Shown here: piece by piece, positions 2,513 through 48,789 of the stretch
Layout: the number at the start of each line of letters is the position of its first letter
Numbering within the stretch: position 1 is the first letter of the stretch
From: Escherichia coli
Lineage (GTDB): Bacteria > Pseudomonadota > Gammaproteobacteria > Enterobacterales > Enterobacteriaceae
Reading direction: 5' to 3' (one strand)
Length of the DNA stretch: 64,000 nucleotides
Assembly (NCBI RefSeq): GCF_051903065.1
Contig: NZ_CP178438.1
Program-made: the position numbers and the translations under genes
Notes under the pieces: generated by a model
The model's input: only the letters and a program-made list of their open reading frames with translations
The model's database searches: none
What the model was told of the DNA's origin: nothing

Positions 2513-3971
2513 ACTTCACGGAATATTTCGCCACGGTCGCTTTCGCACCATGCGCTAATAAAAACAAGTACGCTTCCGTCACTTTTGCAGTAAACAAGCT
2601 ATTGTCTGGCAAATCATCACCAAAGATCGCCTTAATCGCCAGCAATGACTGGACGCGCGCTTTCCCTTCGGCACTACTTTGTACAGCCTTCTGAATAACA
2701 GGTAACAGTGGGTCACTGATTTCAATCGGATTTCCCTGTTCATCAACACCACCGACATAACGCATCCAACCCGCGACGCCCAGCGCCAGCAGATCGAACT
2801 TGCTGTCATGCGCCAGATGCCAGCGAACAGAATCCAACATCCGCTGTGGCAATTTCTGGCTGCCATCCATCGCAATCTGCCAGGTTCGATGGCGTAACGC
2901 CGGGTTGCTATAGCGTGCAATTAATCGGTTAGCGTAATCTTGCAAATCAACGCCCTGCACTTTCAGCGTCGGCGCTTGTTCCTGCAACATCAAGCCATAC
3001 GCCGCATGACGATAATGTTCATCTTCCATACAGTCATTAATGTGCTGATATCCGGCAAGATAACCCAGATACGCCAGGAATGAATGACTGCCGTTGAGCA
3101 TGCGCAACTTCATCTCTTCATAAGGCAGTACATCGCTAACCAGTTCTGCTCCCGCTTTTTCCCATTCCGGACGTCCGGCAACAAAATTATCTTCGATTAC
3201 CCACTGGCGGAAAGGTTCACAGGCAACGCCAGCAGGATCGCGCACACCGGTAAGTTGTTCGATTTTCGCCAGCGTATCCTCTGTCACTGCGGGCACAATA
3301 CGGTCCACCATTGTTGATGGGAAAGTCACGTTATCTTCGATCCATTGTGCCAGTTTTACATCAACGGCTTGCGCGTAGGAAGTGACAACGTCACGCATAA
3401 CATGACCGTTTTCTGGCATGTTGTCACATGACATGACGGTAAATGCGGGAAGTCCTGCCGCTTTACGGCGAGCCAGCGCCTCAACAATCACCCCTGTTGC
3501 TGTTTTCGGCTGGTGGGGATTTTGCACGTCGGCAACGACCATCGGGTGATCGAGCATTAACTGTCCGGTCGCCGGAGAGTGGAAATACCCTTTTTCGGTG
3601 ATTGTCAGAGAGACAATCGCGATTTGTGGTTCACACATCGCAGCCAACACGGTTTCTAAGCCATCTATCTGTACGTGCAAGGCTTTTTTAACGACGCCAA
3701 CGACGCGAGCCGTCCACGCATCGGCCGACATTTCCGCAACGGTATAAAGATTATCTTGCTGTTGTAAATCGGCAATTTGCTGTTCGCCACCGATTAAGTT
3801 GACCTCATAATATCCCCAGTCACTGAAATGTTCTGTAGCAAGAATATCGGCATACACGCCCTGATGCGCACGGTGAAATGCACCAAAGCCTAAATGAACA
3901 ATTCTTGGGGCCAGGTTATTACGATCATAAACAGGGAGTGTCGCTTTTGCTGATAACAAATTATTTCCCAT
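2511..3971 (-). CDS. ydfI: mannitol dehydrogenase-family oxidoreductase (mannonate/altronate oxidoreductase-like)
   Basis: 486-aa ORF; family assignment from overall similarity to UxuB-type proteins by memory. Confidence 0.85.
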
Positions 3972-4059
3972 AACAATTCCTTAAATTTAAATATGGCAAG
4001 CTACATGTTTTGTTATATGAAGAAAAATCCCCTCTCCGGTAAGAGAAGGGATTGAGGAT

Positions 4060-5343
4060 TTAAAGACTTCTGGAAGGTTGCGCAGCTCTTACAACACGCG
4101 GTTGATCTTCCGCAGCGTCTTCCAGCGCACTTAAATCACGGTCTTTCACTTCTGGCATTTTCAGCGCAGAGATTAAACCAATCACTGAATATGCCATGAT
4201 CATAATGGCGATTGGATACCAGGATTCCGTCATGGTGCAGAAAATACCCGCCAGGATAGGACCAAAACCGGAAGCGATAAGACCACCAATTTCTTTAGAA
4301 ATAGCCATCCGGGTAAAGCGGTTTTTACAGCCGAACATTTCTGCCATGGTAATGTTTTCCAGAGCAAATAATCCCAGCACCGCACAGTTATGAATCACAA
4401 TCAGTGCAACCATAATGGTGCTCGGGGCATAGCTTTTATCTACGATGATAGAAAGCATTGGCCATGCCAGCACAATCGCGGAGGTATTCATAATAATATA
4501 CGGGATCCGGCGACCAATTTTATCGGATAACCAACCAAGGAACGGAATGGTCATAAAGCCGAGAATCGAACTAATCATCAATGCATCTGTTGGAATTGCT
4601 TTGTTAAACAATAACGTCTGCACTAAATAGCCTGCAAGGAAAGTCTGAATTAACCCGGAGTTACCCGCCTGACCAAAACGCAGCCCTGTTGCCAGCCAGA
4701 AGGATTTGCTCTGGAACATGCTACCAGCAGGTGCAGGTTTTGCTGTCGGTTGGTTGCTGTCGTTAACCTTCTCAAAGACCGGGCTTTCTTTCAGATTCAT
4801 ACGCAACCAGATAGCAAAGACCATCACGACAACGCTCGCCAGGAACGGTATACGCCATCCCCACGCCAGCAGTTCCTCTTTACTGAGAATGAAGAACATA
4901 AAGGCCCAGATTGCCGTTGCGCTTAAGGTTCCGCAGTTAGTTCCCATAGCCACAAATGAGGAGATAATTCCGCGCTTACCTTTTGGCGCATATTCCGCCA
5001 GCATCGTACCGGCACCGGAAATTTCCGCACCTGCACCCAACCCCTGAATAATACGCAGCGTCACCAGCAAGATGGGTGCAAAAACACCAATCTGTGCATA
5101 GGTCGGTAACACACCAATTAAGGTGGTACAGATCCCCATCATGGTGATGGTAATAAAGAGCACTTTTTTACGCCCTATTCTGTCGCCCATTTTGCCGAAA
5201 ATAAATGCTCCGACAATACGCGCCACATAACCTGCACCGTAGGTTCCCATTGCCAGAATTAACGCCATTGCCGTTGATGATTCAGGAAAAAATATTTCAT
5301 GAAACACTAACGCTGCGCCGAGTGAATATAACTGGAAATCCAT
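4060..5343 (-). pseudogene. ydfJ: MFS transporter YdfJ (ProP-like), 3' portion; first ~28 codons displaced to 34966-35058 by prophage insertion
   Basis: 427-aa ORF starts MDFQLYSLGAALVF...; upstream N-terminal codons are found at the other prophage end; att core overlaps the ATG. Confidence 0.8.
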
Positions 5344-5345
5344 AA
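5335..5345. repeat. att core copy at left prophage junction (attL-like)
   Basis: GAAATCCATAA identical to 34966-34976; lies at the ydfJ fragment junction. Confidence 0.7.
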
Positions 5346-5946
5346 TTCACAGGTGTTTTTTCCCATCCTGTGGTTTCCTTGGCGTTTTCTAGGTTTTTTC
5401 AGATAGTTGCATTTTTTAAAAAGCATCCTAAGTTCGATCTCAGTGTCTATCTGGGGCCTATTTCTGTCCCATATATGCCCCAAAAAAACTCCCCAACAGA
5501 TAAGTAGTTTTTTCATGGATTTATGCGTAAAATCAAGAACGGCTGGAAATCATTCAATACTCACACTATCGAAAAATTTACCAGCCAACCGCAGCACGTT
5601 CTTGCATAAGGCGTGTCTGCGTTTTTTCAACTATTCAGATACATCACTCCCATCACAGTCATTCCTCCGCATCAAAGGCATATAGGCTATATCACCTTGA
5701 TATTTTTCTTTTTCAGATAAAAACTGTTATCTATGTATACTTTTAAACCCAATCCGTGTAGAGTCTCTGCATAAGATAGTTTGCAGTTGCCGCTTCAGCT
5801 TGCGCCATAAACCGCCTGATTTTTGCTGCCACCTGCTAGCATTCCTGTATACCTGAAACGACAATGTTTATCTACGAACTTTAAAAACACCCAAGATAAA
5901 AATTGTCAACTATATCATATATAACACATTACTAATTCGAGGCTAT

Positions 5947-6060
5947 ATGAACAGCATACTGATAATCACTTCTCTCCTTATCATATTCAGCATTTTTAGT
6001 CATGCCCTAATAAAATTAGGGATTGGCATATCCAATAACCCAGACAAAACCGATGTATAA
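5947..6060 (+). CDS. possible small hydrophobic protein (37 aa, one predicted TM helix)
   Basis: ATG preceded by GAGG; [37 protein letters not shown]; no homology check possible. Confidence 0.3.
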
Positions 6061-6095
6061 GTCAACATATCCTGAATCAGACATACAATATCGCA

Positions 6096-6362
6096 ATGAA
6101 AATCAATAATATTTTAAGGAATATCTTCATGAAATCAAAAGACACCCTAAAGTGGTTCCCTGCGCAGCTTCCTGAAGTAAGAATTATCCTAGGGGATGCT
6201 GTAGTGGAAGTAGCAAAACAGGGAAGACCTATTAATACCAGAACATTGCTTGATTACATTGAAGGAAACATAAAGAAAAAATCATGGCTGGATAACAAAG
6301 AATTATTACAAACAGCGATATCAGTTCTTAAAGACAACCAAAATTTAAATGGTAAAATGTAA
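6096..6362 (+). CDS. ydfK: prophage cold-shock-induced protein YdfK (YnaE paralog); true start may be internal Met at 6129
   Basis: 88-aa ORF containing MKSKDTLKWFPAQLPEVRIILGDAVVEVAKQGRP... Confidence 0.8.
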   Translation: MKINNILRNIFMKSKDTLKWFPAQLPEVRIILGDAVVEVAKQGRPINTRTLLDYIEGNIKKKSWLDNKELLQTAISVLKDNQNLNGKM

Positions 6363-7367: not shown

Positions 7368-7943
7368 CTACGGCAGTGCTGGCCATTCAATATCCTGTGC
7401 AGTTGACGTATCAACACGGTTCAGCAATACCCGATACTTTTTCCATGCTTCCAGCAACGAGATTTCTTCCTCCGTTGCAATTTCCAGATCTGCAGCATCC
7501 TGAAGCGGCGCAATATGCTCACTGGCTACCTGCATCAGGTTGTTTTTTGTTTCTTCCGCCTCCCGGATCCGGAACAGTTTTTCTGCTTCCGTATCCTTCA
7601 CCCAGGCTGTGCCGTTCCACTTCTGAAACTCCCCTTCCGGCGATAACCAGGTAACATTTTCCGGTAACGGACCGAGTTCAGAAATAAATAACGCGTCGCC
7701 GGAAGCCACGTCATAGACGGTTTTTCCCCGATGATCTTCAACGAGATGCCACGATGCCTCATCACTGTTGAAAACAGCCACGAAGCCTGCCGGAATATCT
7801 GGCGGTGCAATATCGGTACTGTTTGCTGGCAGACCTGTATGAGGCGGAATATATGCGTCACCTTCACCAATAAATTCATTAGTTCCGGCCAGCAGATTAT
7901 AAATTTTTATGGTCTGTGGTTGTTCACTCATTCTGAATGCCAT
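7368..7943 (-). CDS. tfaQ: tail fibre assembly protein
   Basis: 191-aa ORF immediately downstream of tail fibre gene; Tfa-family organisation. Confidence 0.85.
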
Positions 7944-9159: not shown

Positions 9160-10216
9160 GGCTTTGTTGAATAAATCGAACTTTTGCTGAGTTGAAGGAT
9201 CAGATCACGTATCTTCCCGACAACGCAGACCGTTCCGTGGCAAAGCAAAAGTTCAAAATCACCAACTGGCCCACCTACAATAAAGCCCTCATCAACCGTG
9301 GCTCCATAACTTTCTGGCTGGATGATGAAGCTATTCAGGCCTGGTATGAGTCAGCAACACCTTCTTCACGAGGCAGACCTCAGCGCTATTCTGACCTTGC
9401 CATCACGACTGTGCTGGTCATTAAACGCGTATTCAGGCTGACCCTGCGCGCTGCGCAGGGCTTTATTGATTCCATTTTTTCTCTGATGAACGTTCCGCTA
9501 CGCTGCCCGGATTACAGCTGTGTCAGCAGGCGGGCAAAGTCGGTTAATGTCAGTTTCAAAACGCCCACCCGGGGTGAAATCGCACACCTGGTAATTGATT
9601 CCACCGGGCTGAAGGTCTTCGGTGAAGGCGAGTGGAAAGTCAAAAAGCATGGCCAGGAACGCCGCCGTATCTGGCGTAAGCTGCATCTCGCCGTTGACAG
9701 TAAAACACATGAAATCATCTGCGCTGACCTGTCGCTGAACAACGTTACGGACTCAGAGGCCTTCCCCGGGTTAATCCGGCAAACCCACCGGAAAATCAGG
9801 TCAGCCGCCGCCGATGGCGCTTACGATACCCGGCTATGTCACGATGAACTGCGGCGTAAGAAAATCAGCGCGCTTATCCCTCCCCGAAAAGGTGCGGGTT
9901 ACTGGCCCGGTGAATATGCAGACCGTAACCGTGCAGTGGCTAATCAGCGAATGACCGGGAGTAATGCGCGGTGGAAATGGACAACAGATTACAACCGTCG
10001 CTCGATAGCGGAAACGGCGATGTACCGGGTAAAACAGCTGTTCGGGGGTTCACTGACACTGCGTGACTACGATGGTCAGGTTGCAGAGGCTATGGCCCTG
10101 GTACGAGCGCTGAACAAAATGACGAAAGCAGGTATGCCTGAAAGCGTGCGTATTGCCTGAAAACACAACCCGCTACGGGGGAGACTTACCCGAAATCTGA
10201 TTTATTCAACAAAGCC
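9160..10216 (+). mobile_element. IS903-like insertion sequence (IS5 family), 1057 bp
   Basis: 18-bp terminal inverted repeats GGCTTTGTTGAATAAATC at 9160-9177 and 10199-10216 (reverse complement); single transposase ORF; no 9-bp target duplication. Confidence 0.85.
9192..10160 (+). CDS. IS903-type DDE transposase
   Basis: 322-aa [55 protein letters not shown]...; recognised as IS903/IS102-type by memory. Confidence 0.85.
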
Positions 10217-16809: not shown

Positions 16810-17080
16810 GATGTTACCGTAGTATGTGAGTATCCATCGAATAGACACCAAGCAAAAAAGCTCCCGAAGGAGCCTTCATTTTCACTTTTTTAAATCCAAC
16901 GACAGACGGCTGGCATTTAAGTATTGTGAAATATTATCAAATGTAATCATCATTGATTTACAAAAGATACATTTTGCCCCGAAAGGATTCATGTCAGAAA
17001 CATCAAAAGATGATGTTCTATACTGGGAACCATGACAACACGGGCATCTAAAGTGAATATGGTTTGTAATATTGTCTACC

Positions 17081-17293
17081 TCAAAGCGCCACTACATGAA
17101 CAGCGGCAGGACCTTTAGGTCCGTTCTCAATACCAAATTCAACTTCCTGATTCTCAGTTAATGTTTTGAAATCGTTGCTCTGAATTGCTGAGAAATGGAC
17201 AAACACATCTTTGCTGCCATCTTTCGGCGTGATGAAACCAAAACCTTTTTCAGGGTTAAACCATTTCACTAAACCAGTCATTTTGTTAGACAT
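17081..17293 (-). CDS. cspI: cold shock protein CspI (CspA family)
   Basis: 70-aa [26 protein letters not shown]... cold-shock domain RNP motifs. Confidence 0.9.
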
Positions 17294-17655
17294 AATTATT
17301 ACCTTTTGAAGAAATTAGCCCTTGGGCAGAATGGTCCGAAAAAAAATATCAGAGAGAAAAACCAACAAGGAAATCTCAAGAGGTACAAATAATAAAATTA
17401 TAACAATGACTGCTTCAGATAAATTTGTAACAAACCAGAACACCATTAACGCATGATTAACCACCCATAGCAAGGATTACTTTTGTAAAGAAAAACACAG
17501 CAATGAAAGAATAGCTTTATTTATTAATAAAACGTGTCATTCTGATTAAGACCTTTTATCTTACCCTTAAGATTTCAGGAATTTTGGCTCATGGAAGAGT
17601 CCTTTTTATTTAAATTTTACATTCCGCGATGTAAATGTTCCGATTTAATATTACC

Positions 17656-19600: not shown

Positions 19601-19963
19601 TTGATTTTATTAGTAACAAGTATTTTTTATATTTTAATAATATATTTAAAGCAGATAATAAAAAACCCGCCTGAGCGGGTTTGAGATTGTGGTGCTTTTT
19701 GTGGGAGTCATCCACTTACGCACTTTGTTTTGCGATGCCAGCAGTTAGCTTCTGCTGTGAAACTATTCATGCAGCAAACCTGCACTTCACCACAATGGTT
19801 AGCATACTTTTCCTGATTAAGATTTTGCCAAATATGCTGGCCATTGTTTCATGTATTGGACCTCCTTACTTTTTATTAAAGAGATCCAATATTCACTACT
19901 CTGTCCGTATCTCTACTCAGGCATCAGCCTTCTTCGTTATCGTATACAGACGAGCGATGAATT

Positions 19964-20179
19964 TTAATCAGTAATGATGACATTTACTGCTGCAGGACCT
20001 TTAGCACCACTCTCTATAGAGAAGGTAACCTTTTGACCTTCAAATAAGGTTCGATAATTATCATTCTGAATCGCAGAAAAATGCACAAACACATCTTTAC
20101 TACCATCAACAGGAGAAATAAAGCCGAAACCTTTATCAGCGTTAAACCATTTTACTAAACCAGTCATTTTATTTGACAT
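19964..20179 (-). CDS. cspB: cold shock protein CspB
   Basis: 71-aa [26 protein letters not shown]... Confidence 0.9.
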
Positions 20180-20489
20180 TCTACATTCCTTAACTTGAGC
20201 CTTTCGGCATAAATGGTTTGCATAACAGAAACGACTTCGTACTTAATTGGAGAGACTCAAAGAAGGAATAAGTGAATAACACCTGAAATGAGAACTGCTT
20301 TAGTAAACTACTTCGTATATCGTCTGTTCTTCAAACCGACGCAGTCATTAACTCATAGTTGAACATATGAAGCAATGTTTATTTTAGACATCCAGCCACC
20401 TTCAATCCTATCAAAAAAGTAGTTTTCTCCAGGAACGTGTGTATGGTGCACCAGGTTATCAGTATTAAGGAGTTTTTCTGTCCCCTAAA

Positions 20490-27110: not shown

Positions 27111-27444
27111 GAAAAATCCCCCAGAGAATTGTCTGGGGACATTTTAGAATGGTTCAAAGGGGACATTACAGCTTGGTGTTAACAATAGCCTGCTTCTCCG
27201 TGCCTTTCGGCACGTAAGAGGCTAACCTACATGTGTCTAGCATGAAATTGGCCTCAGATTAATGTTAAGCGTCTTGCAGGACGCGTAATGTTAACTGGGG
27301 CTTTTCTCTATCTGCCGTTGGTGTCCATGCCCGAGGCAGATAGCCTCAAGCACCCGCAGTCATTCTACTTAACTAAGATTTCCCCGCAAACCGTTTTTGT
27401 CCAGCACAGTAAATATCCAACTAAACCAATGGAGTTCGCTGTAT

Positions 27445-32805: not shown

Positions 32806-32863
32806 TTTCTGGTGACGTTTGGCGGTATCAGTTTTACTCCGTGACTGCTCTGCCGCCCTTTTT
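32806..32863 (+). ncRNA. dicF: DicF small regulatory RNA (ftsZ-targeting)
   Basis: TTTCTGGTGACGTTTGGCGGTATCAGTTTTACTCCGTGACTGCTCTGCCGCCCTTTTT matches remembered DicF with intrinsic terminator; ends approximate. Confidence 0.8.
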
Positions 32864-38966: not shown

Positions 38967-39677
38967 TTAATAATAATCGATTGTATTTTTGATGGTGTAA
39001 ACCCGTTCGACGGCGGGTTTTACTCCTTCATCAACAATGATTAGCTGACAGTCCACCGGATTGGCGTGACTGTCATATTCACAGCTCTGTTTTACATTAC
39101 CAACCCGTTGATTGTTCAGTAAAGTAACCGCTGTGTAATCTAATTTTTTGATCGGATCCGTTGATGGCGTGGCGCTGACAGATAATGTTTTGTCGTTACT
39201 TTTCGTGGTTTTACCTAGCGGATACCCCTGATCATCATAGCGATATTCCATCTGCATCTGTTTGCTGCTGGCTTTAATCACGAAGCCATTATCATCGGTT
39301 TCCCAACTCACCCCGGCGGAAGGTAATTCCGCTAGCTGGCATTTTCCCTGTAAACGTACTCTCTTCTCCAGCGTCTCAGCATCACGGTAATAATTGGCGT
39401 CCAGTACCAGAGCGACCACGGTATTATTTTCCAGATCCAGTAATTCGAGTGAATCAAAACAGCCTTCTTCCGACAAAGTCCCCGAAACACGTTTCGTCAC
39501 TTCACCTTGCTCATCCATTAATGTCTGAGTGAAATCTTTTACCGGACCACGCAGCGGATCAAAATCGAATTCATTAGAGAAACTGGCCATCTCAGGGGTA
39601 AATGAAAGTGTTACCTCTGTGCGGTCACATCCTGTGAGGAATATCGCGAGTAAGCATGGTAGTAATTTGTATTTCAC
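38967..39677 (-). CDS. ynfC: lipoprotein YnfC (UPF0257); probable GTG start
   Basis: ORF 38967-39713; lipobox LTGC after KYKLLPCLLAIF. Confidence 0.8.
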   Translation of the reverse strand: MKYKLLPCLLAIFLTGCDRTEVTLSFTPEMASFSNEFDFDPLRGPVKDFTQTLMDEQGEVTKRVSGTLSEEGCFDSLELLDLENNTVVALVLDANYYRDAETLEKRVRLQGKCQLAELPSAGVSWETDDNGFVIKASSKQMQMEYRYDDQGYPLGKTTKSNDKTLSVSATPSTDPIKKLDYTAVTLLNNQRVGNVKQSCEYDSHANPVDCQLIIVDEGVKPAVERVYTIKNTIDYY

Positions 39678-39784
39678 AACAGTCACCAGAGAGTAGAGAT
39701 GATTCTCAATCATAGTAGCAAATACAGTACTTTACACGTTAAATGCTATGCTTAAAGAAGTTATCTTCGCGTAAGGAGCTTATG

Positions 39785-40090
39785 ATGAAACTCTCAACCT
39801 GCTGTGCCGCGCTTCTGCTCGCCCTCGCCTCACCCGCGGTACTCGCCGCGCCGGGATCCTGTGAGCGCATACAGAGCGATATATCACAGCGCATTATCAA
39901 TAATGGCGTACCCGAAAGCAGCTTCACGTTAAGTATTGTACCCAATGACCAGGTTGATCAGCCTGATTCCCAGGTCGTCGGGCATTGTGCTAATGATACG
40001 CATAAAATTCTCTACACCCGCACCACCAGCGGTAACGTCTCTGCTCCCGCGCAGTCTACCCAGGATGGCGCGCCTGCCGAACTGCAGTAA
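39785..40090 (+). CDS. ynfD: secreted protein YnfD
   Basis: ORF 39743-40090; start MKLSTCCAALLLALASPAVLA (signal peptide) with AGGAG upstream. Confidence 0.8.
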   Translation: MKLSTCCAALLLALASPAVLAAPGSCERIQSDISQRIINNGVPESSFTLSIVPNDQVDQPDSQVVGHCANDTHKILYTRTTSGNVSAPAQSTQDGAPAELQ

Positions 40091-40287
40091 TACATTATCG
40101 ACTGAACGCCGGATACGACGCATCCGGCGATTTGAACATATAACATAACCCACCTTATTACTCATACCCTTCTATTGATATGGATTAATAATTCTTAACC
40201 CAAAATGGGTAGACTCCCTCTATTGTTAGCGCGCTAAATATTCAATATATAAACTTTTATATAACGATAAAGAACAGGGAGTGAGTT

Positions 40288-42714
40288 ATGTCCAAAAATG
40301 AACAAATGGTGGGCATCAGCCGCAGAACACTCGTTAAATCTACCGCGATAGGTTCTCTGGCGCTGGCTGCAGGCGGTTTTTCTTTACCGTTTACCCTGCA
40401 CAGTGCAGCAGCAGCGGTACAACAGGCCCGCGAAAAAGTGGTCTGGGGTGCCTGTTCTGTCAACTGTGGTAGCCGCTGTGCACTTCGTCTACATGTTAAA
40501 GATAATGAAGTGACCTGGGTGGAAACTGACAATACCGGCAGCGATGAGTACGGCAACCATCAGGTACGCGCCTGTTTGCGCGGTCGCTCCATCCGCCGGC
40601 GTATTAATCATCCCGATCGCTTGAATTACCCAATGAAACGCGTGGGCAAACGCGGCGAAGGCAAATTCGAACGGATTAGCTGGGATGAAGCCCTGGATAC
40701 TATCGCCAGTAGCCTGAAGAAAACCGTCGAACAATATGGCAATGAGGCTGTATATATTCAGTACTCTTCGGGGATCGTTGGCGGCAATATGACCCGCTCT
40801 TCGCCATCAGCCTCGGCGGTCAAACGCCTGATGAACTGCTACGGCGGTTCACTCAATCAGTATGGCTCCTACAGCACCGCACAAATTTCCTGTGCCATGC
40901 CCTACACCTACGGCAGTAATGATGGCAACAGCACCACGGATATTGAAAACAGCAAGCTGGTCGTGATGTTTGGTAACAACCCGGCAGAAACCCGCATGAG
41001 CGGCGGTGGCATCACTTATCTTCTTGAAAAAGCGCGCGAGAAATCGAACGCCAAAATGATTGTTATCGATCCGCGATATACCGATACGGCTGCTGGTCGT
41101 GAGGATGAATGGCTTCCTATTCGCCCGGGCACCGATGCCGCGCTGGTTGCGGGGATTGCCTGGGTATTGATTAACGAAAATCTCGTTGATCAACCTTTTC
41201 TCGATAAATACTGCGTCGGCTATGACGAAAAAACCTTACCCGCAGATGCACCCAAAAATGGTCACTATAAAGCCTATATTCTTGGTGAAGGTGATGATAA
41301 CACAGCGAAAACGCCGCAGTGGGCTTCGCAAATTACCGGTATCCCGGTGGACCGTATCATCAAACTGGCGCGTGAAATTGGCACAGCAAAACCCGCTTAT
41401 ATCTGCCAGGGCTGGGGGCCGCAACGCCAGGCAAACGGCGAGCTGACTGCACGCGCTATTGCTATGTTGCCTATTTTGACGGGCAATGTCGGCATCAGCG
41501 GCGGAAATAGTGGCGCGCGTGAATCGACCTATACCATTACCATAGAGCGACTGCCGGTGCTGGATAATCCGGTCAAAACGTCAATTTCCTGCTTCAGTTG
41601 GACAGATGCTATCGATCATGGTCCGCAAATGACGGCAATCCGCGACGGCGTCCGCGGCAAAGATAAACTGGATGTGCCCATTAAGTTCATCTGGAACTAC
41701 GCGGGAAATACCCTGGTTAATCAGCATTCTGACATCAACAAAACGCATGAAATTCTGCAAGACGAATCGAAATGCGAAATGATTGTGGTCATCGAAAACT
41801 TTATGACCTCATCGGCAAAATATGCCGACATTCTGCTGCCAGACCTGATGACCGTTGAGCAGGAAGATATTATTCCTAACGACTACGCCGGTAACATGGG
41901 ATATCTCATTTTCCTCCAGCCTGTCACCAGCGAAAAATTCGAACGCAAACCGATTTACTGGATCCTGAGTGAAGTCGCGAAACGTCTTGGACCTGACGTC
42001 TATCAAAAGTTCACAGAAGGTCGTACGCAGGAACAATGGTTACAACATCTGTACGCCAAAATGCTTGCCAAAGATCCGGCGTTACCGTCTTACGACGAAC
42101 TGAAAAAAATGGGTATCTATAAGCGTAAAGATCCCAATGGTCATTTTGTCGCCTACAAAGCATTTCGTGACGACCCCGAGGCAAATCCACTTAAAACACC
42201 TTCCGGTAAGATTGAAATTTATTCCAGCAAGCTGGCGGAAATTGCCCGTACCTGGGAACTGGAAAAAGATGAAGTGATAAGCCCACTGCCAGTTTATGCC
42301 TCTACCTTTGAAGGCTGGGACTCACCTGAACGTAGAACCTTCCCACTGCAACTGTTTGGTTTCCATTACAAATCCCGTACTCACTCGACCTACGGCAATA
42401 TTGATCTCCTGAAGGCTGCCTGCCGTCAGGAGGTGTGGATCAACCCTATAGATGCGCAGAAACGTGGGATTGCCAACGGCGATATGGTGCGGGTGTTTAA
42501 CCATCGTGGCGAAGTTCGGCTACCAGCCAAAGTGACACCACGTATTCTCCCTGGAGTTAGCGCTATGGGCCAGGGAGCCTGGCACGAGGCCAATATGTCT
42601 GGCGATAAAATCGACCATGGAGGCTGTGTGAATACGCTAACCACTCTGCGCCCTTCACCACTGGCGAAGGGAAACCCGCAGCATACGAATCTGGTCGAGA
42701 TCGAAAAAATATAA
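40288..42714 (+). CDS. ynfE: DMSO-reductase-family molybdoenzyme catalytic subunit (putative selenate reductase) with Tat signal
   Basis: 808-aa ORF; twin-arginine motif SRRTLVK; Cys cluster CSVNCGSRC. Confidence 0.9.
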   Translation: MSKNEQMVGISRRTLVKSTAIGSLALAAGGFSLPFTLHSAAAAVQQAREKVVWGACSVNCGSRCALRLHVKDNEVTWVETDNTGSDEYGNHQVRACLRGRSIRRRINHPDRLNYPMKRVGKRGEGKFERISWDEALDTIASSLKKTVEQYGNEAVYIQYSSGIVGGNMTRSSPSASAVKRLMNCYGGSLNQYGSYSTAQISCAMPYTYGSNDGNSTTDIENSKLVVMFGNNPAETRMSGGGITYLLEKAREKSNAKMIVIDPRYTDTAAGREDEWLPIRPGTDAALVAGIAWVLINENLVDQPFLDKYCVGYDEKTLPADAPKNGHYKAYILGEGDDNTAKTPQWASQITGIPVDRIIKLAREIGTAKPAYICQGWGPQRQANGELTARAIAMLPILTGNVGISGGNSGARESTYTITIERLPVLDNPVKTSISCFSWTDAIDHGPQMTAIRDGVRGKDKLDVPIKFIWNYAGNTLVNQHSDINKTHEILQDESKCEMIVVIENFMTSSAKYADILLPDLMTVEQEDIIPNDYAGNMGYLIFLQPVTSEKFERKPIYWILSEVAKRLGPDVYQKFTEGRTQEQWLQHLYAKMLAKDPALPSYDELKKMGIYKRKDPNGHFVAYKAFRDDPEANPLKTPSGKIEIYSSKLAEIARTWELEKDEVISPLPVYASTFEGWDSPERRTFPLQLFGFHYKSRTHSTYGNIDLLKAACRQEVWINPIDAQKRGIANGDMVRVFNHRGEVRLPAKVTPRILPGVSAMGQGAWHEANMSGDKIDHGGCVNTLTTLRPSPLAKGNPQHTNLVEIEKI

Positions 42715-42771
42715 CCCACTACAACCATAAATTCTGGCATGACATTTTGTTTGAAAAGCAATAAGTGAGTA

Positions 42772-45198
42772 ATGATGAAAATCCATACCACAGAGGCGCT
42801 CATGAAGGCTGAAATCAGCCGTAGAAGTCTGATGAAAACCTCCGCACTTGGCAGTCTTGCGCTGGCAAGCAGTGCTTTCACTCTGCCATTTTCCCAAATG
42901 GTCCGGGCGGCACAGGCTCCGGTAGAAGAGAAAGCGGTCTGGAGTTCCTGCACCGTTAACTGCGGGAGCCGCTGTCTGTTACGTTTGCATGTGAAAGATG
43001 ACACCGTGTACTGGGTGGAGTCTGATACGACAGGTGACGACGTCTACGGTAATCATCAGGTTCGAGCGTGTTTACGCGGGCGCTCTATCCGCCGACGGAT
43101 GAATCATCCTGATAGGTTGAAATATCCCATGAAGCGCGTCGGCAAGCGCGGTGAAGGTAAATTTGAACGGATAAGTTGGGACGAAGCCCTGGATACCATC
43201 AGTGATAATCTTCGGCGGATCCTAAAAGATTACGGCAATGAGGCTGTACATGTCCTGTACGGAACAGGTGTAGATGGCGGAAACATCACCAACTCAAACG
43301 TCCCGTACCGTCTGATGAACTCTTGCGGTGGTTTTCTCAGTCGCTATGGCAGCTACAGTACCGCACAGATCAGTGCCGCAATGAGTTATATGTTCGGTGC
43401 CAATGATGGCAACAGCCCGGATGATATCGCCAATACGAAACTGGTCGTTATGTTCGGAAATAACCCGGCAGAAACGCGGATGAGCGGTGGTGGTGTCACT
43501 TACTACGTCGAGCAAGCCCGCGAACGTTCAAACGCACGCATGATCGTCATCGATCCACGTTATAACGACACAGCTGCCGGGCGTGAAGATGAATGGCTGC
43601 CCATTCGCCCTGGCACCGATGGCGCACTGGCCTGTGCGATTGCCTGGGTGCTGATTACTGAAAACATGGTCGATCAGCCATTTCTCGACAAATATTGTGT
43701 TGGTTACGATGAAAAAACGCTGCCCGCCAACGCACCACGTAACGCGCATTATAAAGCCTATATTCTGGGCGAAGGGCCTGACGGCATAGCTAAAACGCCG
43801 GAATGGGCAGCAAAAATCACCAGCATTCCGGCAGAAAAAATTATCCAGTTGGCACGAGAGATCGGTTCAGCAAAACCTGCTTATATTTGTCAGGGTTGGG
43901 GGCCACAACGACATTCCAACGGCGAGCAAACATCCCGCGCTATTGCCATGCTTTCCGTTCTCACCGGTAACGTCGGCATAAACGGCGGCAACTCAGGTGT
44001 ACGCGAAGGTAGCTGGGATCTGGGGGTAGAATGGTTCCCGATGCTTAAGAATCCTGTTAAAACGCAGATTTCCGTCTTTACATGGACAGATGCCATCGAC
44101 CATGGTACGGAAATGACCGCGACCCGTGATGGTGTTCGTGGAAAAGAAAAACTGGATGTCCCCATCAAGTTTTTATGGTGCTACGCCAGTAACACATTGA
44201 TCAATCAACATGGCGACATCAATCACACCCATGAGGTGCTTCAGGATGACAGCAAGTGCGAGATGATTGTTGGCATTGACCACTTCATGACGGCCTCGGC
44301 TAAGTATTGCGATATCCTGTTGCCCGACCTGATGCCAACAGAGCAAGAAGACCTTATCTCTCATGAATCTGCAGGGAATATGGGCTATGTGATCCTCGCC
44401 CAACCCGCAACCTCAGCAAAATTTGAACGCAAACCCATCTACTGGATGCTGAGTGAAGTCGCCAAACGCTTAGGACCGGACGTTTATCAAACCTTTACTG
44501 AAGGTCGCAGTCAGCATGAATGGATCAAATATCTCCATGCGAAAACGAAGGAACGTAACCCTGAGATGCCCGACTACGAGGAGATGAAAACGACCGGGAT
44601 CTTTAAGAAAAAATGCCCGGAAGAACACTACGTCGCTTTCCGCGCATTCCGTGAAGATCCACAGGCAAACCCGTTGAAAACACCTTCGGGGAAAATCGAA
44701 ATTTATTCTGAACGACTGGCGAAGATTGCAGATACCTGGGAATTGAAAAAAGATGAAATTATTCATCCCCTTCCTGCGTATACCCCAGGTTTTGATGGCT
44801 GGGACGATCCCCTGCGGAAAACCTATCCACTGCAGTTAACGGGCTTCCACTACAAAGCGCGTACCCACTCCAGCTACGGCAATATTGATGTGTTACAGCA
44901 GGCCTGCCCACAAGAGGTGTGGATCAACCCCATTGATGCTCAGGCTCGCGGTATCCGTCATGGCGATACCGTGCGGGTATTTAACAATAATGGAGAAATG
45001 CTGATTGCCGCAAAAGTGACTCCGCGTATTCTGCCTGGCGTTACCGCCATCGGGCAAGGTGCGTGGCTTAAAGCGGATATGTTTGGTGACCGGGTCGATC
45101 ACGGCGGCAGTATTAATATTCTGACCTCTCACCGCCCTTCACCGCTGGCAAAGGGAAACCCGTCGCACAGCAATCTTGTCCAGATCGAAAAGGTTTAA
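42772..45198 (+). CDS. ynfF: DMSO-reductase-family molybdoenzyme catalytic subunit, paralog of ynfE, Tat signal
   Basis: 808-aa ORF; SRRSLMK; CTVNCGSRC. Confidence 0.9.
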   Translation: MMKIHTTEALMKAEISRRSLMKTSALGSLALASSAFTLPFSQMVRAAQAPVEEKAVWSSCTVNCGSRCLLRLHVKDDTVYWVESDTTGDDVYGNHQVRACLRGRSIRRRMNHPDRLKYPMKRVGKRGEGKFERISWDEALDTISDNLRRILKDYGNEAVHVLYGTGVDGGNITNSNVPYRLMNSCGGFLSRYGSYSTAQISAAMSYMFGANDGNSPDDIANTKLVVMFGNNPAETRMSGGGVTYYVEQARERSNARMIVIDPRYNDTAAGREDEWLPIRPGTDGALACAIAWVLITENMVDQPFLDKYCVGYDEKTLPANAPRNAHYKAYILGEGPDGIAKTPEWAAKITSIPAEKIIQLAREIGSAKPAYICQGWGPQRHSNGEQTSRAIAMLSVLTGNVGINGGNSGVREGSWDLGVEWFPMLKNPVKTQISVFTWTDAIDHGTEMTATRDGVRGKEKLDVPIKFLWCYASNTLINQHGDINHTHEVLQDDSKCEMIVGIDHFMTASAKYCDILLPDLMPTEQEDLISHESAGNMGYVILAQPATSAKFERKPIYWMLSEVAKRLGPDVYQTFTEGRSQHEWIKYLHAKTKERNPEMPDYEEMKTTGIFKKKCPEEHYVAFRAFREDPQANPLKTPSGKIEIYSERLAKIADTWELKKDEIIHPLPAYTPGFDGWDDPLRKTYPLQLTGFHYKARTHSSYGNIDVLQQACPQEVWINPIDAQARGIRHGDTVRVFNNNGEMLIAAKVTPRILPGVTAIGQGAWLKADMFGDRVDHGGSINILTSHRPSPLAKGNPSHSNLVQIEKV

Positions 45199-45208
45199 GG
45201 AGTAGCCC

Positions 45209-45826
45209 ATGACCACACAATATGGATTTTTTATCGATTCCAGCCGCTGTACTGGCTGTAAAACCTGCGAACTGGCGTGCAAAGATTTTAAAGATCTTGG
45301 CCCGGAAGTCAGTTTCCGCCGTATTTATGAATATGCTGGCGGCGACTGGCAGGAAGATAATGGCGTCTGGCACCAGAACGTGTTCGCTTATTATCTCTCC
45401 ATCTCCTGTAACCATTGCGATGACCCCGCATGTACAAAAGTCTGCCCCAGCGGCGCAATGCATAAGCGTGAAGATGGCTTTGTGGTGGTTGATGAAGATG
45501 TTTGTATCGGCTGCCGCTACTGCCACATGGCTTGTCCGTACGGCGCACCACAGTACAATGCTGAAAAAGGGCACATGACGAAGTGCGATGGTTGTTATTC
45601 GCGCGTCGCCGAGGGGAAACAACCCATATGTGTCGAATCCTGCCCGCTGCGTGCACTTGAGTTCGGTCCAATTGAAGAGCTGCGCCAGAAGCACGGCACT
45701 CTTGCTGCCGTCGCGCCACTGCCGCGCGCGCATTTCACAAAACCCAATATCGTTATCAAACCTAACGCCAACAGCCGCCCGACCGGCGATACCACTGGTT
45801 ATCTGGCTAATCCGGAGGAAGTGTAA
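45209..45826 (+). CDS. ynfG: 4Fe-4S ferredoxin-type subunit (DmsB-like)
   Basis: 205-aa ORF with four CxxCxxCxxxCP clusters. Confidence 0.9.
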   Translation: MTTQYGFFIDSSRCTGCKTCELACKDFKDLGPEVSFRRIYEYAGGDWQEDNGVWHQNVFAYYLSISCNHCDDPACTKVCPSGAMHKREDGFVVVDEDVCIGCRYCHMACPYGAPQYNAEKGHMTKCDGCYSRVAEGKQPICVESCPLRALEFGPIEELRQKHGTLAAVAPLPRAHFTKPNIVIKPNANSRPTGDTTGYLANPEEV

Positions 45827-45827
45827 A

Positions 45828-46682
45828 ATGGGAAATGGATGGCATGAATGGCCACTGGTTATCTTTACCGTATTGGGTCAATGCGTAGTAGGCGCGCTGA
45901 TTGTTAGCGGAATTGGCTGGTTCGCCGCCAAAAATGACGCAGACCGTCAGCACATTGTTCGTGGCATGTTTTTCCTCTGGCTGTTGATGGGCATCGGGTT
46001 TATTGCCTCTGTCATGCACCTGGGATCGCCACTGCGGGCGTTTAACTCGCTGAATCGAATCGGAGCTTCTGGTCTGAGTAACGAGATTGCTGCCGGTTCC
46101 ATATTTTTTGCCGTTGGCGGACTATGGTGGCTGGTGGCGGTCATCGGTAAAATGCCGCAAGCGTTGGGGAAACTCTGGTTACTTGTCAGCATGGCGCTCG
46201 GCGTCATTTTCGTCTGGATGATGACCTGCGTGTATCAAATCGACACTGTGCCAACCTGGCATAACGGTTACACTACGCTGGCTTTCTTCCTGACGGTATT
46301 GTTGAGTGGTCCAATACTTGCTGCCGCAATTCTGCGGGCAGCCCGCGTTACATTTAATACCACACCATTTGCCATCATTAGCGTTCTGGCGCTGATCGCT
46401 TGTGCCGGGGTGATTGTGCTGCAAGGTTTGTCTCTGTCGTCTATTCACTCATCCGTGCAACAAGCCAGCGCACTGGTACCAGATTACGCCTCCTTACAGG
46501 TCTGGCGTGTGGTATTGTTATGCGCAGGTCTAGGATGCTGGCTTTGTCCGCTCATACGTCGCCGTGAACCTCACGTTGCCGGACTTATTCTGGGGTTAAT
46601 CCTCATTCTTGGCGGTGAGATGATCGGGCGTGTGCTCTTTTATGGCCTGCACATGACGGTAGGAATGGCTATTGCAGGTTAA
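45828..46682 (+). CDS. ynfH: membrane anchor subunit (DmsC-like)
   Basis: ATG 1 nt after ynfG stop; MGNGWHEWPLVIFTVLGQ... polytopic membrane protein. Confidence 0.85.
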   Translation: MGNGWHEWPLVIFTVLGQCVVGALIVSGIGWFAAKNDADRQHIVRGMFFLWLLMGIGFIASVMHLGSPLRAFNSLNRIGASGLSNEIAAGSIFFAVGGLWWLVAVIGKMPQALGKLWLLVSMALGVIFVWMMTCVYQIDTVPTWHNGYTTLAFFLTVLLSGPILAAAILRAARVTFNTTPFAIISVLALIACAGVIVLQGLSLSSIHSSVQQASALVPDYASLQVWRVVLLCAGLGCWLCPLIRRREPHVAGLILGLILILGGEMIGRVLFYGLHMTVGMAIAG

Positions 46683-46724
46683 CAAATTGGTGCGGGGCAA
46701 CCCGCACATTTCAGGATGTTAGGA

Positions 46725-47339
46725 ATGACCCATTTTTCACAGCAAGATAATTTTTCTGTCGCGGCGCGCGTGTTGGGCGCGCTGTTTTATTACGCTCCAG
46801 AGAGTGCTGAAGCCGCACCTCTGGTTGCGGTACTCACCAGTGACGGCTGGGAAACTCAGTGGCCTCTACCAGAAGCGTCATTAGCGCCGCTGGCGACGGC
46901 TTTTCAGACACAGTGTGAAGAGACTCTCGCCCAGGCCTGGCAGCGTTTGTTTGTCGGCCCGTGGGCACTGCCGTCTCCGCCGTGGGGATCGGTCTGGCTG
47001 GATCGCGAATCTGTGCTGTTTGGCGATTCAACATTGGCACTTCGTCAGTGGATGCGCGAGAAAGGCATTCAGTTTGAAATGAAGCAAAATGAACCGGAAG
47101 ATCATTTTGGTTCATTGCTGTTGATGGCTGCGTGGTTGGCGGAGAATGGTCGCCAGACAGAATGCGAAGAATTGCTGGCATGGCACCTTTTTCCCTGGTC
47201 AACACGTTTTCTTGACGTTTTTATCGAAAAAGCAGAACACCCTTTCTACCGTGCACTGGGTGAACTGGCTCGCTTAACGCTGGCGCAATGGCAATCACAA
47301 CTGTTAATTCCTGTCGCGGTTAAACCATTCTTTCGATAG
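46725..47339 (+). CDS. dmsD: Tat proofreading chaperone DmsD
   Basis: ORF 46716-47339; start MTHFSQQDNFSVAARVLGALFYYAPES... Confidence 0.9.
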   Translation: MTHFSQQDNFSVAARVLGALFYYAPESAEAAPLVAVLTSDGWETQWPLPEASLAPLATAFQTQCEETLAQAWQRLFVGPWALPSPPWGSVWLDRESVLFGDSTLALRQWMREKGIQFEMKQNEPEDHFGSLLLMAAWLAENGRQTECEELLAWHLFPWSTRFLDVFIEKAEHPFYRALGELARLTLAQWQSQLLIPVAVKPFFR

Positions 47340-47532
47340 GATCACTGTAATATTGCCGGATGGTGACGATTACGCGCGATTCGGCAACAATACGTTACAG
47401 TGTCACGTTTTTTGTCTCTTAAAGCACGCACTGCTTTTGCAGCTGGCCTCTTTTGCCGCAAAATAGTCGCCCGTGTTTCATTGCCCATTTCTGCTCATGC
47501 ATCATCTACACACCTATCCGGATCTGCGCACT

Positions 47533-48789
47533 ATGTTCCGCCGTCTGCTTATCGCAACAGTCGTCGGTATTCTCGCGGCCTTTGCCGTTGCCGGGTTTCG
47601 TCATGCGATGCTGCTACTGGAGTGGTTGTTCCTCAATAATGACTCCGGCAGTCTGGTCAATGCAGCGACAAACCTTTCCCCTTGGCGACGGCTGCTAACT
47701 CCGGCGCTCGGCGGACTGGCGGCGGGTTTGTTGCTGATGGGCTGGCAGAAATTTACCCAGCAACGCCCTCATGCGCCGACCGATTATATGGAAGCGTTGC
47801 AAACCGAGGGTCAGTTTGATTACGCAGCAAGCCTGGTTAAATCGCTTGCCTCTCTGCTGGTAGTAACCAGCGGCAGTGCAATTGGTCGCGAAGGTGCGAT
47901 GATTCTTTTAGCTGCCCTTGCCGCCTCCTGTTTTGCCCAACGTTTTACGCCACGCCAGGAGTGGAAATTATGGATCGCCTGTGGGGCCGCGGCGGGAATG
48001 GCTGCGGCCTATCGTGCCCCGCTTGCTGGCAGTTTATTTATAGCCGAAGTGCTGTTTGGCACTATGATGTTGGCCTCTCTCGGCCCGGTGATTATTTCCG
48101 CCGTCGTGGCATTGCTGGTTAGCAATCTGATTAATCATAGCGACGCGTTACTCTACAGCGTACAACTCTCAGTGACGGTTCAGGCTCGTGACTATGCGCT
48201 GATTATCAGTACAGGTGTGCTGGCAGGTCTGTGCGGACCACTGTTGTTAACGTTAATGAACGCCTGTCATCGTGGATTTGTAAGTCTCAAGCTTGCGCCG
48301 CCCTGGCAACTGGCACTGGGCGGCTTAATCGTGGGTCTGCTTTCCCTGTTCACACCTGCAGTGTGGGGCAACGGCTATAGCACCGTACAATCCTTTTTAA
48401 CCGCCCCGCCACTGTTAATGATCATTGCCGGGATCTTCCTCTGTAAACTGTGTGCCGTGCTGGCGAGTAGTGGTTCCGGCGCGCCCGGTGGTGTCTTTAC
48501 ACCGACGCTATTTATCGGTCTTGCCATTGGCATGTTGTATGGTCGTAGCCTGGGATTATGGTTCCCTGATGGCGAAGAAATTACGCTTTTACTCGGATTG
48601 ACCGGGATGGCGACACTGTTGGCGGCAACCACGCACGCGCCGATTATGTCGACGTTGATGATATCTGAAATGACCGGGGAGTATCAGCTACTCCCCGGTT
48701 TATTGATTGCCTGCGTAATTGCGTCGGTAATTTCGCGGACGTTACACCGTGACTCTATCTACCGCCAGCACACTGCGCAGCATAGCTAA
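47533..48789 (+). CDS. clcB: ClC-type voltage-gated chloride channel
   Basis: ORF 47473-48789; start [17 protein letters not shown]...; GSGIP/GREG-type motifs. Confidence 0.85.

Follow-up and report, generated by a model that had tools for sequence, protein, structure and literature searches.

Recognition of ynfE and ynfF, the tandem catalytic-subunit genes of the ynfEFGH–dmsD operon, in an Escherichia coli chromosome sequence

Positions 40288–45198 of the window (the whole stretch of 64,000 nucleotides that was analysed) hold, with a probability of about 0.95, ynfE and ynfF of E. coli, with which the ynfEFGH–dmsD operon begins. They are ancient tandem paralogues, and the product of each is the catalytic (A) subunit of a membrane-bound molybdoenzyme that resembles DmsABC and faces the periplasm. 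The region is 100% identical to the annotated ynfE–ynfF genes (selenate/tellurate reductase subunits) of E. coli chromosomes, and the stretch is found in 5322 of the 5426 complete E. coli genomes. In a 100%-identical RefSeq record the neighbours are ynfD upstream and ynfG, ynfH, dmsD and clcB downstream, and the layout ynfD–[A genes]–ynfG–ynfH–dmsD–clcB is common to 14 loci of Escherichia, Salmonella, Citrobacter, Pseudocitrobacter, Enterobacter and Phytobacter. The gene names proposed in the earlier note are thus confirmed by the sequence identity and by the genes downstream. None of the analyses run contradicted this identification. Gene identity, domain and motif content, paralogy, duplication age, operon layout and distribution were all observed here. 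The finding is correct but ordinary: a textbook operon, described since 2003 and tied to selenate and tellurate reduction between 2009 and 2021, has been re-identified, and the window itself contains nothing new. The earlier note had called it known biology, in agreement with the prior work as represented in later papers (Lubitz & Weiner 2003, Guymer et al. 2009 and Fujita et al. 2021, via PMC5203670, PMC12096835 and PMC12724226). Its practical use is as a positive control, in which Tat-dependent molybdoenzyme paralogues were rightly recognized from raw sequence. The features of the locus are as follows.

40175–40188, plus strand: FNR-type box, TTGATatggATTAA, with one mismatch to TTGAT-N4-ATCAA, upstream of ynfE (pattern search).
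40288–42714, plus strand: ynfE, 808 aa, Tat-exported Mo-bisMGD/[4Fe-4S] catalytic subunit (100% match to annotated ynfE, NF041885, Pfam domains, motifs).
42715–42774, plus strand: ynfE–ynfF spacer, 60 nt (sequence read), with an SD-like GTGAG at 42765–42769.
42775–45198, plus strand: ynfF, 807 aa (808 aa from the ATG at 42772), paralogous catalytic subunit (100% match to annotated ynfF, NF041884, Pfam domains, motifs).
45209–45826, plus strand: ynfG, 205 aa, electron-transfer subunit whose 16 Cys form four ferredoxin-type groups (TIGR02951, PF13247).
45828–46682, plus strand: ynfH, 284 aa, DmsC-family membrane anchor and quinol-oxidizing subunit (PF04976, annotation).
46725–47339, plus strand: dmsD, 204 aa, Tat proofreading chaperone for DmsA, YnfE and YnfF (NF008632, PF02613, annotation; role from PMC5203670 and PMC10609526).

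The listing of open reading frames gives two adjacent plus-strand frames of 808 aa each, at 40288–42714 and 42772–45198, as the earlier note had reported. The coordinates are exact; however, the RefSeq ynfF begins at the second of two adjacent ATGs (42775) and is 807 aa long. Between the GTGAG element and the first ATG there are 2 nt, whereas the second ATG is at a distance of 5 nt; this spacing favours the start at 42775. Neither frame in the window contains a frameshift or a stop codon. The gaps after ynfF, ynfG and ynfH are 10, 1 and 42 nt, respectively, and the dmsD frame is open from 46716.

Each catalytic protein passes its own family model, and neither reaches the cut-off of the other. 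YnfE scores 1795 bits on NF041885 (cut-off 1675) and 1475 bits on the YnfF model NF041884 (cut-off 1650), whereas YnfF scores 1775 bits on NF041884 and 1482 bits on NF041885; both are NCBIfam exception models with curated cut-offs. The broader model TIGR02166 (dmsA_ynfE; whole-protein cut-off 777.7 bits) is passed by both, with 1399.6 bits for YnfE and 1286.5 bits for YnfF, and both fail the DmsA model NF011566 (1343 and 1318 bits; cut-off 1600). YnfE and YnfF are DmsA paralogues and not DmsA itself. Both proteins exceed the gathering scores of PF04879 (Molybdop_Fe4S4), PF00384 (Molybdopterin oxidoreductase) and PF01568 (Molydop_binding). The genes downstream, in which the earlier note had seen an Fe–S protein, a membrane anchor and the DmsD chaperone, also pass their family models: YnfG reaches 264.8 bits on TIGR02951 (cut-off 214.1) and matches PF13247, YnfH matches PF04976 (DmsC) with E = 4.5e-128 and has multiple hydrophobic segments, and DmsD scores 347.4 bits on NF008632 (cut-off 162) and matches PF02613.

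The sequence motifs that had been noticed at the outset are all present in the respective proteins. The twin-arginine motif is SRRTLVK at residues 11–17 of YnfE and SRRSLMK at residues 15–21 of YnfF (807-aa numbering), each followed by a hydrophobic stretch that ends in LPF. The CxxNCGSRC cluster occurs as CSVNCGSRC and CTVNCGSRC, and belongs to a C-x3-C-x3-C-x31-C pattern (Cys56, Cys60, Cys64 and Cys96 in YnfE; Cys59, Cys63, Cys67 and Cys99 in YnfF); these [4Fe-4S] cysteine columns are identical in DmsA. Both proteins also contain the heptapeptide GSYSTAQ, with Ser196 of YnfE and Ser195 of YnfF as the candidate Mo ligands. By a position counted by hand from the alignment, Ser195 of YnfF corresponds to the Mo-ligand Ser147 of Rhodobacter sphaeroides DMSO reductase (1eu1). 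A sequence search of the PDB found no structure of YnfE, YnfF or DmsA; the best matches, at about 260 bits, were the Rhodobacter DMSO reductase and TMAO reductases. Mo-bisMGD binding and reductase activity are predicted properties, for which the support is genetic evidence in the literature.

The earlier note had proposed a pairwise alignment and named low identity as the outcome that would speak against a duplication. BLASTP aligned YnfE and YnfF with 565 identities in 799 residues (71%), 85% positives, 5 gaps and E = 0, a similarity much too high to arise by chance. The "near-identical architecture" claimed for the two proteins applies to the domain layout; the sequences themselves are only 71% identical. 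YnfE and YnfF share 70.6% of residues, compared with 67.4% (YnfE) and 66.6% (YnfF) shared with DmsA. In a neighbour-joining tree of 40 homologues, the only tree method used and with a sample seeded with YnfF peptides, the YnfE and YnfF clades were each recovered in 200 of 200 bootstraps; the two clades were sisters, apart from DmsA, in 161 of 200, and YnfF grouped with DmsA in none of the 200. The closer mutual identity and the sister clades fit the view of a duplicated catalytic subunit in a dms-like operon. At the nucleotide level ynfE and ynfF are 69.2% identical. In a codon alignment (Nei–Gojobori pS and pN in sliding windows) the synonymous sites are saturated, with pS 0.72, and no 50-codon window of low pS was found, the value being about 0.72 throughout; the longest in-register stretch common to the two genes measures 17 nt. 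The saturated synonymous sites and the lack of a conversion tract mark the duplication as ancient and not recent. dN is 0.22 against a saturated dS, and both copies are under purifying selection. Within the YnfF clade, 82–92% identity is kept across five genera.

Regarding regulation, FNR activation and NarL repression of the ynfE promoter have been reported (Xu et al. 2009, as cited in PMC6561318). The FNR pattern is not enriched across the window (six matches against 3.6 expected), so the support for the box upstream of ynfE comes from this literature and from its conservation in orthologous promoters; Salmonella and two Citrobacter loci have an FNR-type box at the corresponding position ahead of ynfE. 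A putative −10 element, TAGACT at 40210–40215, would possibly centre the box near −41.5. A consensus promoter and terminator scan of 39700–47600 yielded fewer promoter-like sites than shuffled sequence; it returned no site in the region upstream of ynfE, and no promoter-like or terminator-like site in the 60-nt spacer between ynfE and ynfF.

How the genes are regulated, which cofactors the enzymes contain, how they are exported, what they reduce and how YnfE and YnfF share the work are points taken from the literature or deduced; together they give the following proposal. Under anaerobiosis FNR would activate the promoter upstream of ynfE, and nitrate would repress it via NarL. YnfE and YnfF would be synthesized with twin-arginine signal peptides, to which DmsD would bind during insertion of Mo-bis(molybdopterin guanine dinucleotide) and the N-terminal [4Fe-4S] cluster; DmsD is required for DmsA, YnfE and YnfF (PMC10609526). 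The folded A subunit, presumably together with the four-cluster YnfG, would then be exported by Tat and dock on the anchor YnfH. Electrons would pass from menaquinol through YnfH, the YnfG clusters and the A-subunit cluster to Mo, ligated by Ser196 (YnfE) or Ser195 (YnfF), where selenate or tellurate, and probably some S- and N-oxides too, would be reduced. YnfE–GH and YnfF–GH are most likely alternative isoenzymes that use one common set of G and H subunits, with most of the selenate activity probably coming from YnfE. In Salmonella and E. coli the ynfEFGH–dmsD operon has been described as the selenate reductase, with a small contribution from YnfF, 71% identical to YnfE (PMC5203670), and an E. 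coli ΔynfEF strain loses selenate reduction (PMC12724226). The substrates rest on genetics, because no direct biochemical selenate-reductase assay was developed for the Salmonella enzyme (PMC5203670).

We considered whether the operon specifies another DMSO reductase, equivalent in function to DmsABC, and not a selenate/tellurate reductase. The operon was first described as encoding DmsABC paralogues (Lubitz & Weiner 2003, as cited in PMC5203670 and PMC12096835), the three-subunit layout is the same, and YnfE and YnfF are 67% identical to DmsA and YnfG 94% identical to DmsB. However, YnfE and YnfF fall below the DmsA cut-off and outside the DmsA clade, E. coli has a separate dmsABC locus, and genetics tie ynfEF to selenate and tellurate reduction (PMC5203670, PMC12096835, PMC12724226); functional equivalence to DmsABC is accordingly unlikely. 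The current annotation of the enzyme is selenate/tellurate reductase, not DMSO reductase. The high similarity of YnfG to K-12 DmsB (94.1% of residues) is accompanied by 81% nucleotide identity and a pS of 0.73. These values rule out gene conversion as its source, and strong purifying selection explains it.

Another explanation is that only one copy is functional, ynfF (or ynfE) being a decaying relic and not one of two working isoenzymes. For Salmonella, PMC5203670 states that YnfF "does not contribute greatly" to the reduction of selenate; E. albertii ynfF carries an in-frame stop, and the YnfE type is the only one in Enterobacter, Phytobacter and Kosakonia. In E. coli, at least 80% of ynfF is covered in 4739 of 5316 genomes, compared with 5111 of 5318 for ynfE, and a pseudogene allele of ynfF with two deletions (581 and 274 bp) occurs in 546 of the 5426 complete genomes (10%), an ST131 strain among its carriers. 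Because of this allele, the contribution of ynfF may be dispensable. Several observations speak against decay: the ynfF of the window is an intact gene with all its motifs and exceeds the cut-off of its curated model, dN is much lower than dS, and the YnfF clade is conserved across five genera as described above. Several Citrobacter genomes, moreover, have lost YnfE and keep only a YnfF-type body, a pattern contrary to that expected of a relic. A relic is thus quite improbable, and two working isoenzymes remain the preferred reading.

Both genes are kept in Escherichia, Salmonella and some Citrobacter; only the E gene is found in Enterobacter, Phytobacter and Kosakonia, and only the F gene in some Citrobacter. 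In three Citrobacter genomes we observed a hybrid in which the ynfE promoter and Tat signal are joined to a YnfF catalytic body; C. youngae CCUG 30791 carries such a gene. One tentative and rather doubtful interpretation is a fusion by unequal recombination exactly at the junction of signal peptide and mature protein, with YnfE and YnfF as an ancient, partly redundant isoenzyme pair that different lineages have resolved differently. If this is true and not yet described, YnfF would have a physiological substrate of its own, and the driving promoter and signal peptide would matter. These side results may be of interest for selenium and tellurium respiration, Tat proofreading and paralogue evolution, and none of them alters the verdict on the locus.

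A recent duplication, ongoing conversion between the tandem copies or an assembly artefact that doubled one gene, suggested by two adjacent frames of equal length on the same strand, can be dismissed as having a negligible chance, since more than 5100 independent complete genomes contain the pair, each copy has separate orthologues in Salmonella, Citrobacter and Pseudocitrobacter, and the 69.2% nucleotide identity, saturated synonymous sites, lack of a low-pS window and short longest run described above rule out both recent duplication and conversion.

The window was also compared with other E. coli chromosomes. The K-12 genes ynfE (b1587) and ynfF (b1588) are the same genes in the same synteny, ynfB–speG–ynfC–ynfD–ynfEFGH–dmsD–clcB. 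Compared with the K-12 derivative DH5alpha, nucleotide identity is 98.4% for ynfE and 99.4% for ynfF, a difference that is allelic only. The window allele of ynfE is rare (eight genomes at 99% identity or higher) and that of ynfF is common (3383 genomes at the same threshold). Conversion from ynfF as the origin of the rare ynfE allele was ruled out: the 38 SNPs relative to DH5alpha are evenly spread, and the upstream flanking genes are equally diverged, by about 1.5%. The allele is a product of ordinary mosaic recombination. Strain ECNB21-M121 matches the window only over 33825–64000, with 6 SNPs, and the prophage part differs.

Among related systems, Salmonella enterica ynfEFGH–dmsD is the same tandem arrangement, with E and F side by side in two loci, 71% E/F identity (PMC5203670), a conserved FNR-type box, and E and F proteins that are 87 and 91% identical, respectively, to those of the window. 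Between its E and F genes the spacer has a GC-rich hairpin, which E. coli lacks. In Enterobacter cloacae SLD1a-1, SrnA of the SrnABCD system is the YnfE orthologue, with a reported identity of 86% to the E. coli protein; srnA complements an E. coli ΔynfEF mutant, and the genes for B, C and D come after it in the order of the ynf operon (PMC12724226). Unlike E. coli, this strain has a single catalytic gene and no ynfF, and one YnfE-type gene is likewise present in the syntenic loci of Enterobacter, Phytobacter and Kosakonia. E. coli DmsABC shares with the ynf enzyme the A–B–C layout, a DmsD-recognized Tat signal on the A subunit, the cysteine group and the serine ligand motif, with identities of 67% for A, 94% for B and 57% for C. 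In the dms locus, in contrast, there is only one A gene and a chaperone gene is missing, and the reported substrates of the ynf enzyme are selenate and tellurate. Thauera selenatis SerABC, a soluble periplasmic Mo-bisMGD enzyme of the DMSO reductase superfamily, also reduces selenate; however, it is a member of the NarG/chlorate-reductase-like branch and no close relative. Selenate reductases have been argued to have multiple origins (PMC12724226).

Two adjoining plus-strand ORFs of 808 amino acids each, at 40288-42714 and 42772-45198, were found in the ORF listing, exactly where the earlier note had placed a tandem of paralogous Tat-dependent molybdoenzyme genes, ynfE and ynfF. The 808-residue length stands for the first; the second has 807 residues, not 808, by the RefSeq start, which is the second of two neighbouring ATGs (42775). 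A Shine-Dalgarno-like GTGAG at 42765-42769 lies 2 nt before the first ATG and 5 nt before the second, and this spacing favours the RefSeq start. The features of the locus are as follows.

40175-40188, FNR-type box TTGATatggATTAA, upstream of ynfE
40210-40215, TAGACT, putative -10 element
40288-42714, + strand, ynfE, catalytic (A) subunit
42775-45198, + strand, ynfF, catalytic (A) subunit
45209-45826, ynfG, Fe-S (B) subunit
45828-46682, ynfH, membrane anchor (C)
46725-47339, dmsD, Tat chaperone

The motifs that the note had quoted are present in both ORFs: SRRTLVK at residues 11-17 of YnfE, SRRSLMK at residues 15-21 of YnfF (807-aa numbering), and CxxNCGSRC as CSVNCGSRC and CTVNCGSRC across the two. 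The pairwise alignment it proposed upholds the pairing, with 565/799 identities (71%), 85% positives, 5 gaps and E = 0 in BLASTP; chance is excluded as the source of this similarity. The cluster motif C-x3-C-x3-C-x31-C comprises C56/60/64/96 in YnfE and C59/63/67/99 in YnfF, and DmsA shares these cysteine columns in the alignment. The serine of GSYSTAQ in YnfF aligns by phmmer to chain residue 147 of the Rhodobacter sphaeroides DMSO reductase 1eu1, counted by hand on the printed alignment, on which Tyr114 and Trp116 of 1eu1 land where expected. Ser147 of 1eu1 is the Mo-ligand serine. The heptapeptide is identical in YnfE, with the serine at 196. For YnfE, YnfF and DmsA alike, a sequence search of the PDB returned no solved structure.

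The family models distinguish the two proteins from each other and from DmsA. YnfE scores 1795 bits on the NCBIfam model NF041885, whose cut-off is 1675, and YnfF reaches 1775 bits on NF041884, whose cut-off is 1650; each falls under the other's cut-off. Both fall under the cut-off of 1600 on the DmsA model NF011566 (1343 and 1318 bits, respectively), as expected since they are paralogues of DmsA, and both pass the broader model TIGR02166 (dmsA_ynfE). The Pfam domains Molybdop_Fe4S4, Molybdopterin and Molydop_binding occur in each. The Fe-S, membrane-anchor and DmsD chaperone genes reported downstream are likewise confirmed: the ynfG product passes TIGR02951, the DMSO/selenate B-subunit model, and has 16 cysteines in four ferredoxin-type groups; the ynfH product is a DmsC-family anchor (PF04976, E = 4.5e-128); and the dmsD product scores 347 bits on NF008632. 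By megablast, 40288-45198 is present in 5322 of 5426 complete E. coli genomes, in 5126 of them at a coverage of at least 80%, and three records are 100% identical. Their annotation reads 'ynfE: selenate/tellurate reductase subunit YnfE | ynfF: selenate/tellurate reductase subunit YnfF'. In an identical record the genes run rspA, ynfA, ynfB, speG, ynfC, ynfD, ynfE, ynfF, ynfG, ynfH, dmsD, clcB, bioD. The gaps from ynfE to dmsD measure 60, 10, 1 and 42 nt, and a consensus scan of the E-F spacer gave no promoter-like or terminator-like site, which is consistent with one operon. All testable defining features of the ynfEFGH-dmsD operon were found; the locus is this described operon and, as the note had said, already known biology.

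Within the 42-nt ynfH-dmsD spacer lies a GC-rich hairpin, GTGCGGGGCAACCCGCAC (46690-46707), without a T run after it on the + strand; the scan calls it terminator-like on the - strand only. Mechanical ORFs and RefSeq genes differ only in start-codon choice for ynfC (38967-39713; 248 versus 236 aa), ynfD (39743-40090; 115 versus 101 aa), dmsD (46716-47339; 207 versus 204 aa) and clcB (47473-48789; 438 versus 430 aa).

PMC5203670 describes the ynf operon of Salmonella and E. coli as encoding their membrane-bound selenate reductase, with YnfE as the main catalytic subunit and YnfF (71% identical) adding little (citing Guymer et al. 2009). Selenate reduction is lost in E. coli ΔynfEF and restored by SrnA, the Enterobacter YnfE orthologue, and the electron donor is menaquinone (PMC12724226). 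As cited in PMC12096835, ynfEF are tellurate reductase genes too (Fujita et al. 2021). DmsD binds the signal peptides of DmsA, YnfE and YnfF, and all three enzymes require it (PMC5203670, PMC10609526). On the model of DmsABC, the electron path would start at menaquinol, cross YnfH and the clusters of YnfG, and reach Mo by way of the A-subunit cluster. The promoter of ynfE is switched on by FNR and repressed by NarL, according to Xu et al. (2009) as cited in PMC6561318. The box upstream of ynfE came from a pattern search, and the FNR pattern alone is not significant in the window (6 matches versus 3.6 expected); the box itself is kept at the matching position upstream of ynfE in Salmonella and two Citrobacter loci. 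With TAGACT as the putative -10, the box would lie near -41.5.

To date the duplication, we compared the pair with K-12 dmsABC. Identities are 70.6% (amino acid) and 69.2% (nucleotide) for YnfE-YnfF, 67.4% and 66.7% for YnfE-DmsA, and 66.6% and 66.2% for YnfF-DmsA. Between ynfE and ynfF, pS is saturated at 0.716 with a pN of 0.188, no 50-codon window of low pS was found, and identical runs in register are at most 17 nt long; thus the copies are old, with no sign of recent gene conversion. Both genes are under purifying selection. A genome-contig scan with a YnfF seed gave 56 loci, and a neighbour-joining tree of their A subunits was built from Kimura distances for 40 taxa over 795 columns, with 200 bootstraps.

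Bootstrap support in the A-subunit tree
YnfF clade: 200/200
YnfE clade including Rahnella/Rouxiella: 200/200
YnfE clade with the first Mesocricetibacter gene: 174/200
YnfE and YnfF as sisters: 161/200
DmsA clade: 154/200
YnfF nested in Enterobacteriaceae YnfE: 0/200
YnfF with DmsA: 0/200

This support bears out the proposal of a duplicated catalytic subunit inside a dms-like operon. The YnfE/YnfF split appears older than the Enterobacteriaceae-Yersiniaceae divergence in this tree, which is neighbour-joining only and whose sample is biased by the YnfF-derived seed peptides; fast evolution of YnfF could place it artificially deep.

Within E. coli, coverage of at least 80% is found in 4739 of 5316 genomes for ynfF versus 5111 of 5318 for ynfE. 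In isolate 30859_5#96 (L061 4001-5570), ynfF is a pseudogene with two internal deletions, nt 714-1294 (581 bp) and nt 2069-2342 (274 bp), next to an intact ynfE. The first deletion junction, probed with L061:4654-4773, occurs in 546 of 5426 complete genomes, an O25b:H4-ST131 strain among them, and IS-mediated truncations are seen too. Elsewhere in Escherichia, codon 291 is an in-frame stop in ynfF of E. albertii NBRC 107761 (L006 635-3055), and ynfE of Escherichia sp. MOD1-EC7003 (L005 3525-5937) is in two frames, split near codons 220-236; these are possibly pseudogenes or assembly errors. The ynfE allele of the window is rare (8 complete E. coli genomes at at least 99% identity) and its ynfF allele common (3383 at the same threshold). 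Compared with DH5alpha, ynfA-ynfE diverge by about 1.5% and the sequence from ynfF on by about 0.6%, a step suggestive of a recombination boundary close to the ynfE/ynfF junction.

The window from 1 to about 34.9 kb holds the ydfG-rspR-ydfZ-ydfI-ydfJ region, followed by a Qin-type prophage that is degraded and carries IS903B and IS1A; the IS903B copy at 9160-10216 links a tail-fibre end to a truncated integrase. Rfam matches are IS009 RNA (7402-7600), two cspA-type thermoregulator leaders (17054-17439 and 19917-20340), sok (27184-27355) and DicF (32807-32858). In the closest complete genomes (23CRST027 and 23CRST031) this left part is longer by about 28 kb, and the extra DNA includes a satellite-like element bearing genes for integrase, primase, capsid and small terminase.

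Among relatives, the A genes vary within the conserved gene order ynfB-speG-ynfC-ynfD-[A genes]-G-H-dmsD (L-numbers denote comparison loci).

A genes at the ynf locus
E and F: Escherichia, Salmonella, C. amalonaticus S646, Pseudocitrobacter
YnfE type only: Enterobacter, Phytobacter, Kosakonia (L014-L016, L049, L056)
YnfF only, right behind ynfD: C. amalonaticus ku-bf3, a Citrobacter MAG (L008, L046)
Single hybrid: Citrobacter sp. wls619 (L010 5974-8394), C. youngae CCUG 30791 (L011 about 3790-6210), Citrobacter sp. Cu233 (L012 5974-8397)

In the Citrobacter hybrid the promoter region, with the FNR-type box TTGATATGCATTAA, is that of ynfE, and the Tat signal peptide is likewise YnfE-type. Its first ~45 residues are 78-83% identical to YnfE versus 50-56% to YnfF, and the remainder is YnfF-type (80-100%); the crossover is at the signal-peptide/mature junction. 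From its sequence, the hybrid looks like a product of unequal recombination between tandem ynfE and ynfF. In Rahnella (L017, L018, L037, L041, L053) and in Mesocricetibacter of the Pasteurellaceae (L043), a tandem of YnfE-type and DmsA-type A genes is followed by one B gene, one C gene and dmsD; in Kluyvera cryocrescens and a relative (L034, L036), a ynfF-type A-B-C set comes immediately after dmsABC. Finally, YnfG (45209-45826) is 94.1% identical in amino acids to DmsB of the K-12 dms locus (L002 5415-6032). Gene conversion as the origin of this likeness is ruled out by a saturated pS of 0.73 and a nucleotide identity of 81%, and the near-identity thus reflects very strong purifying selection. 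In contrast, YnfH is just 57% identical to DmsC.
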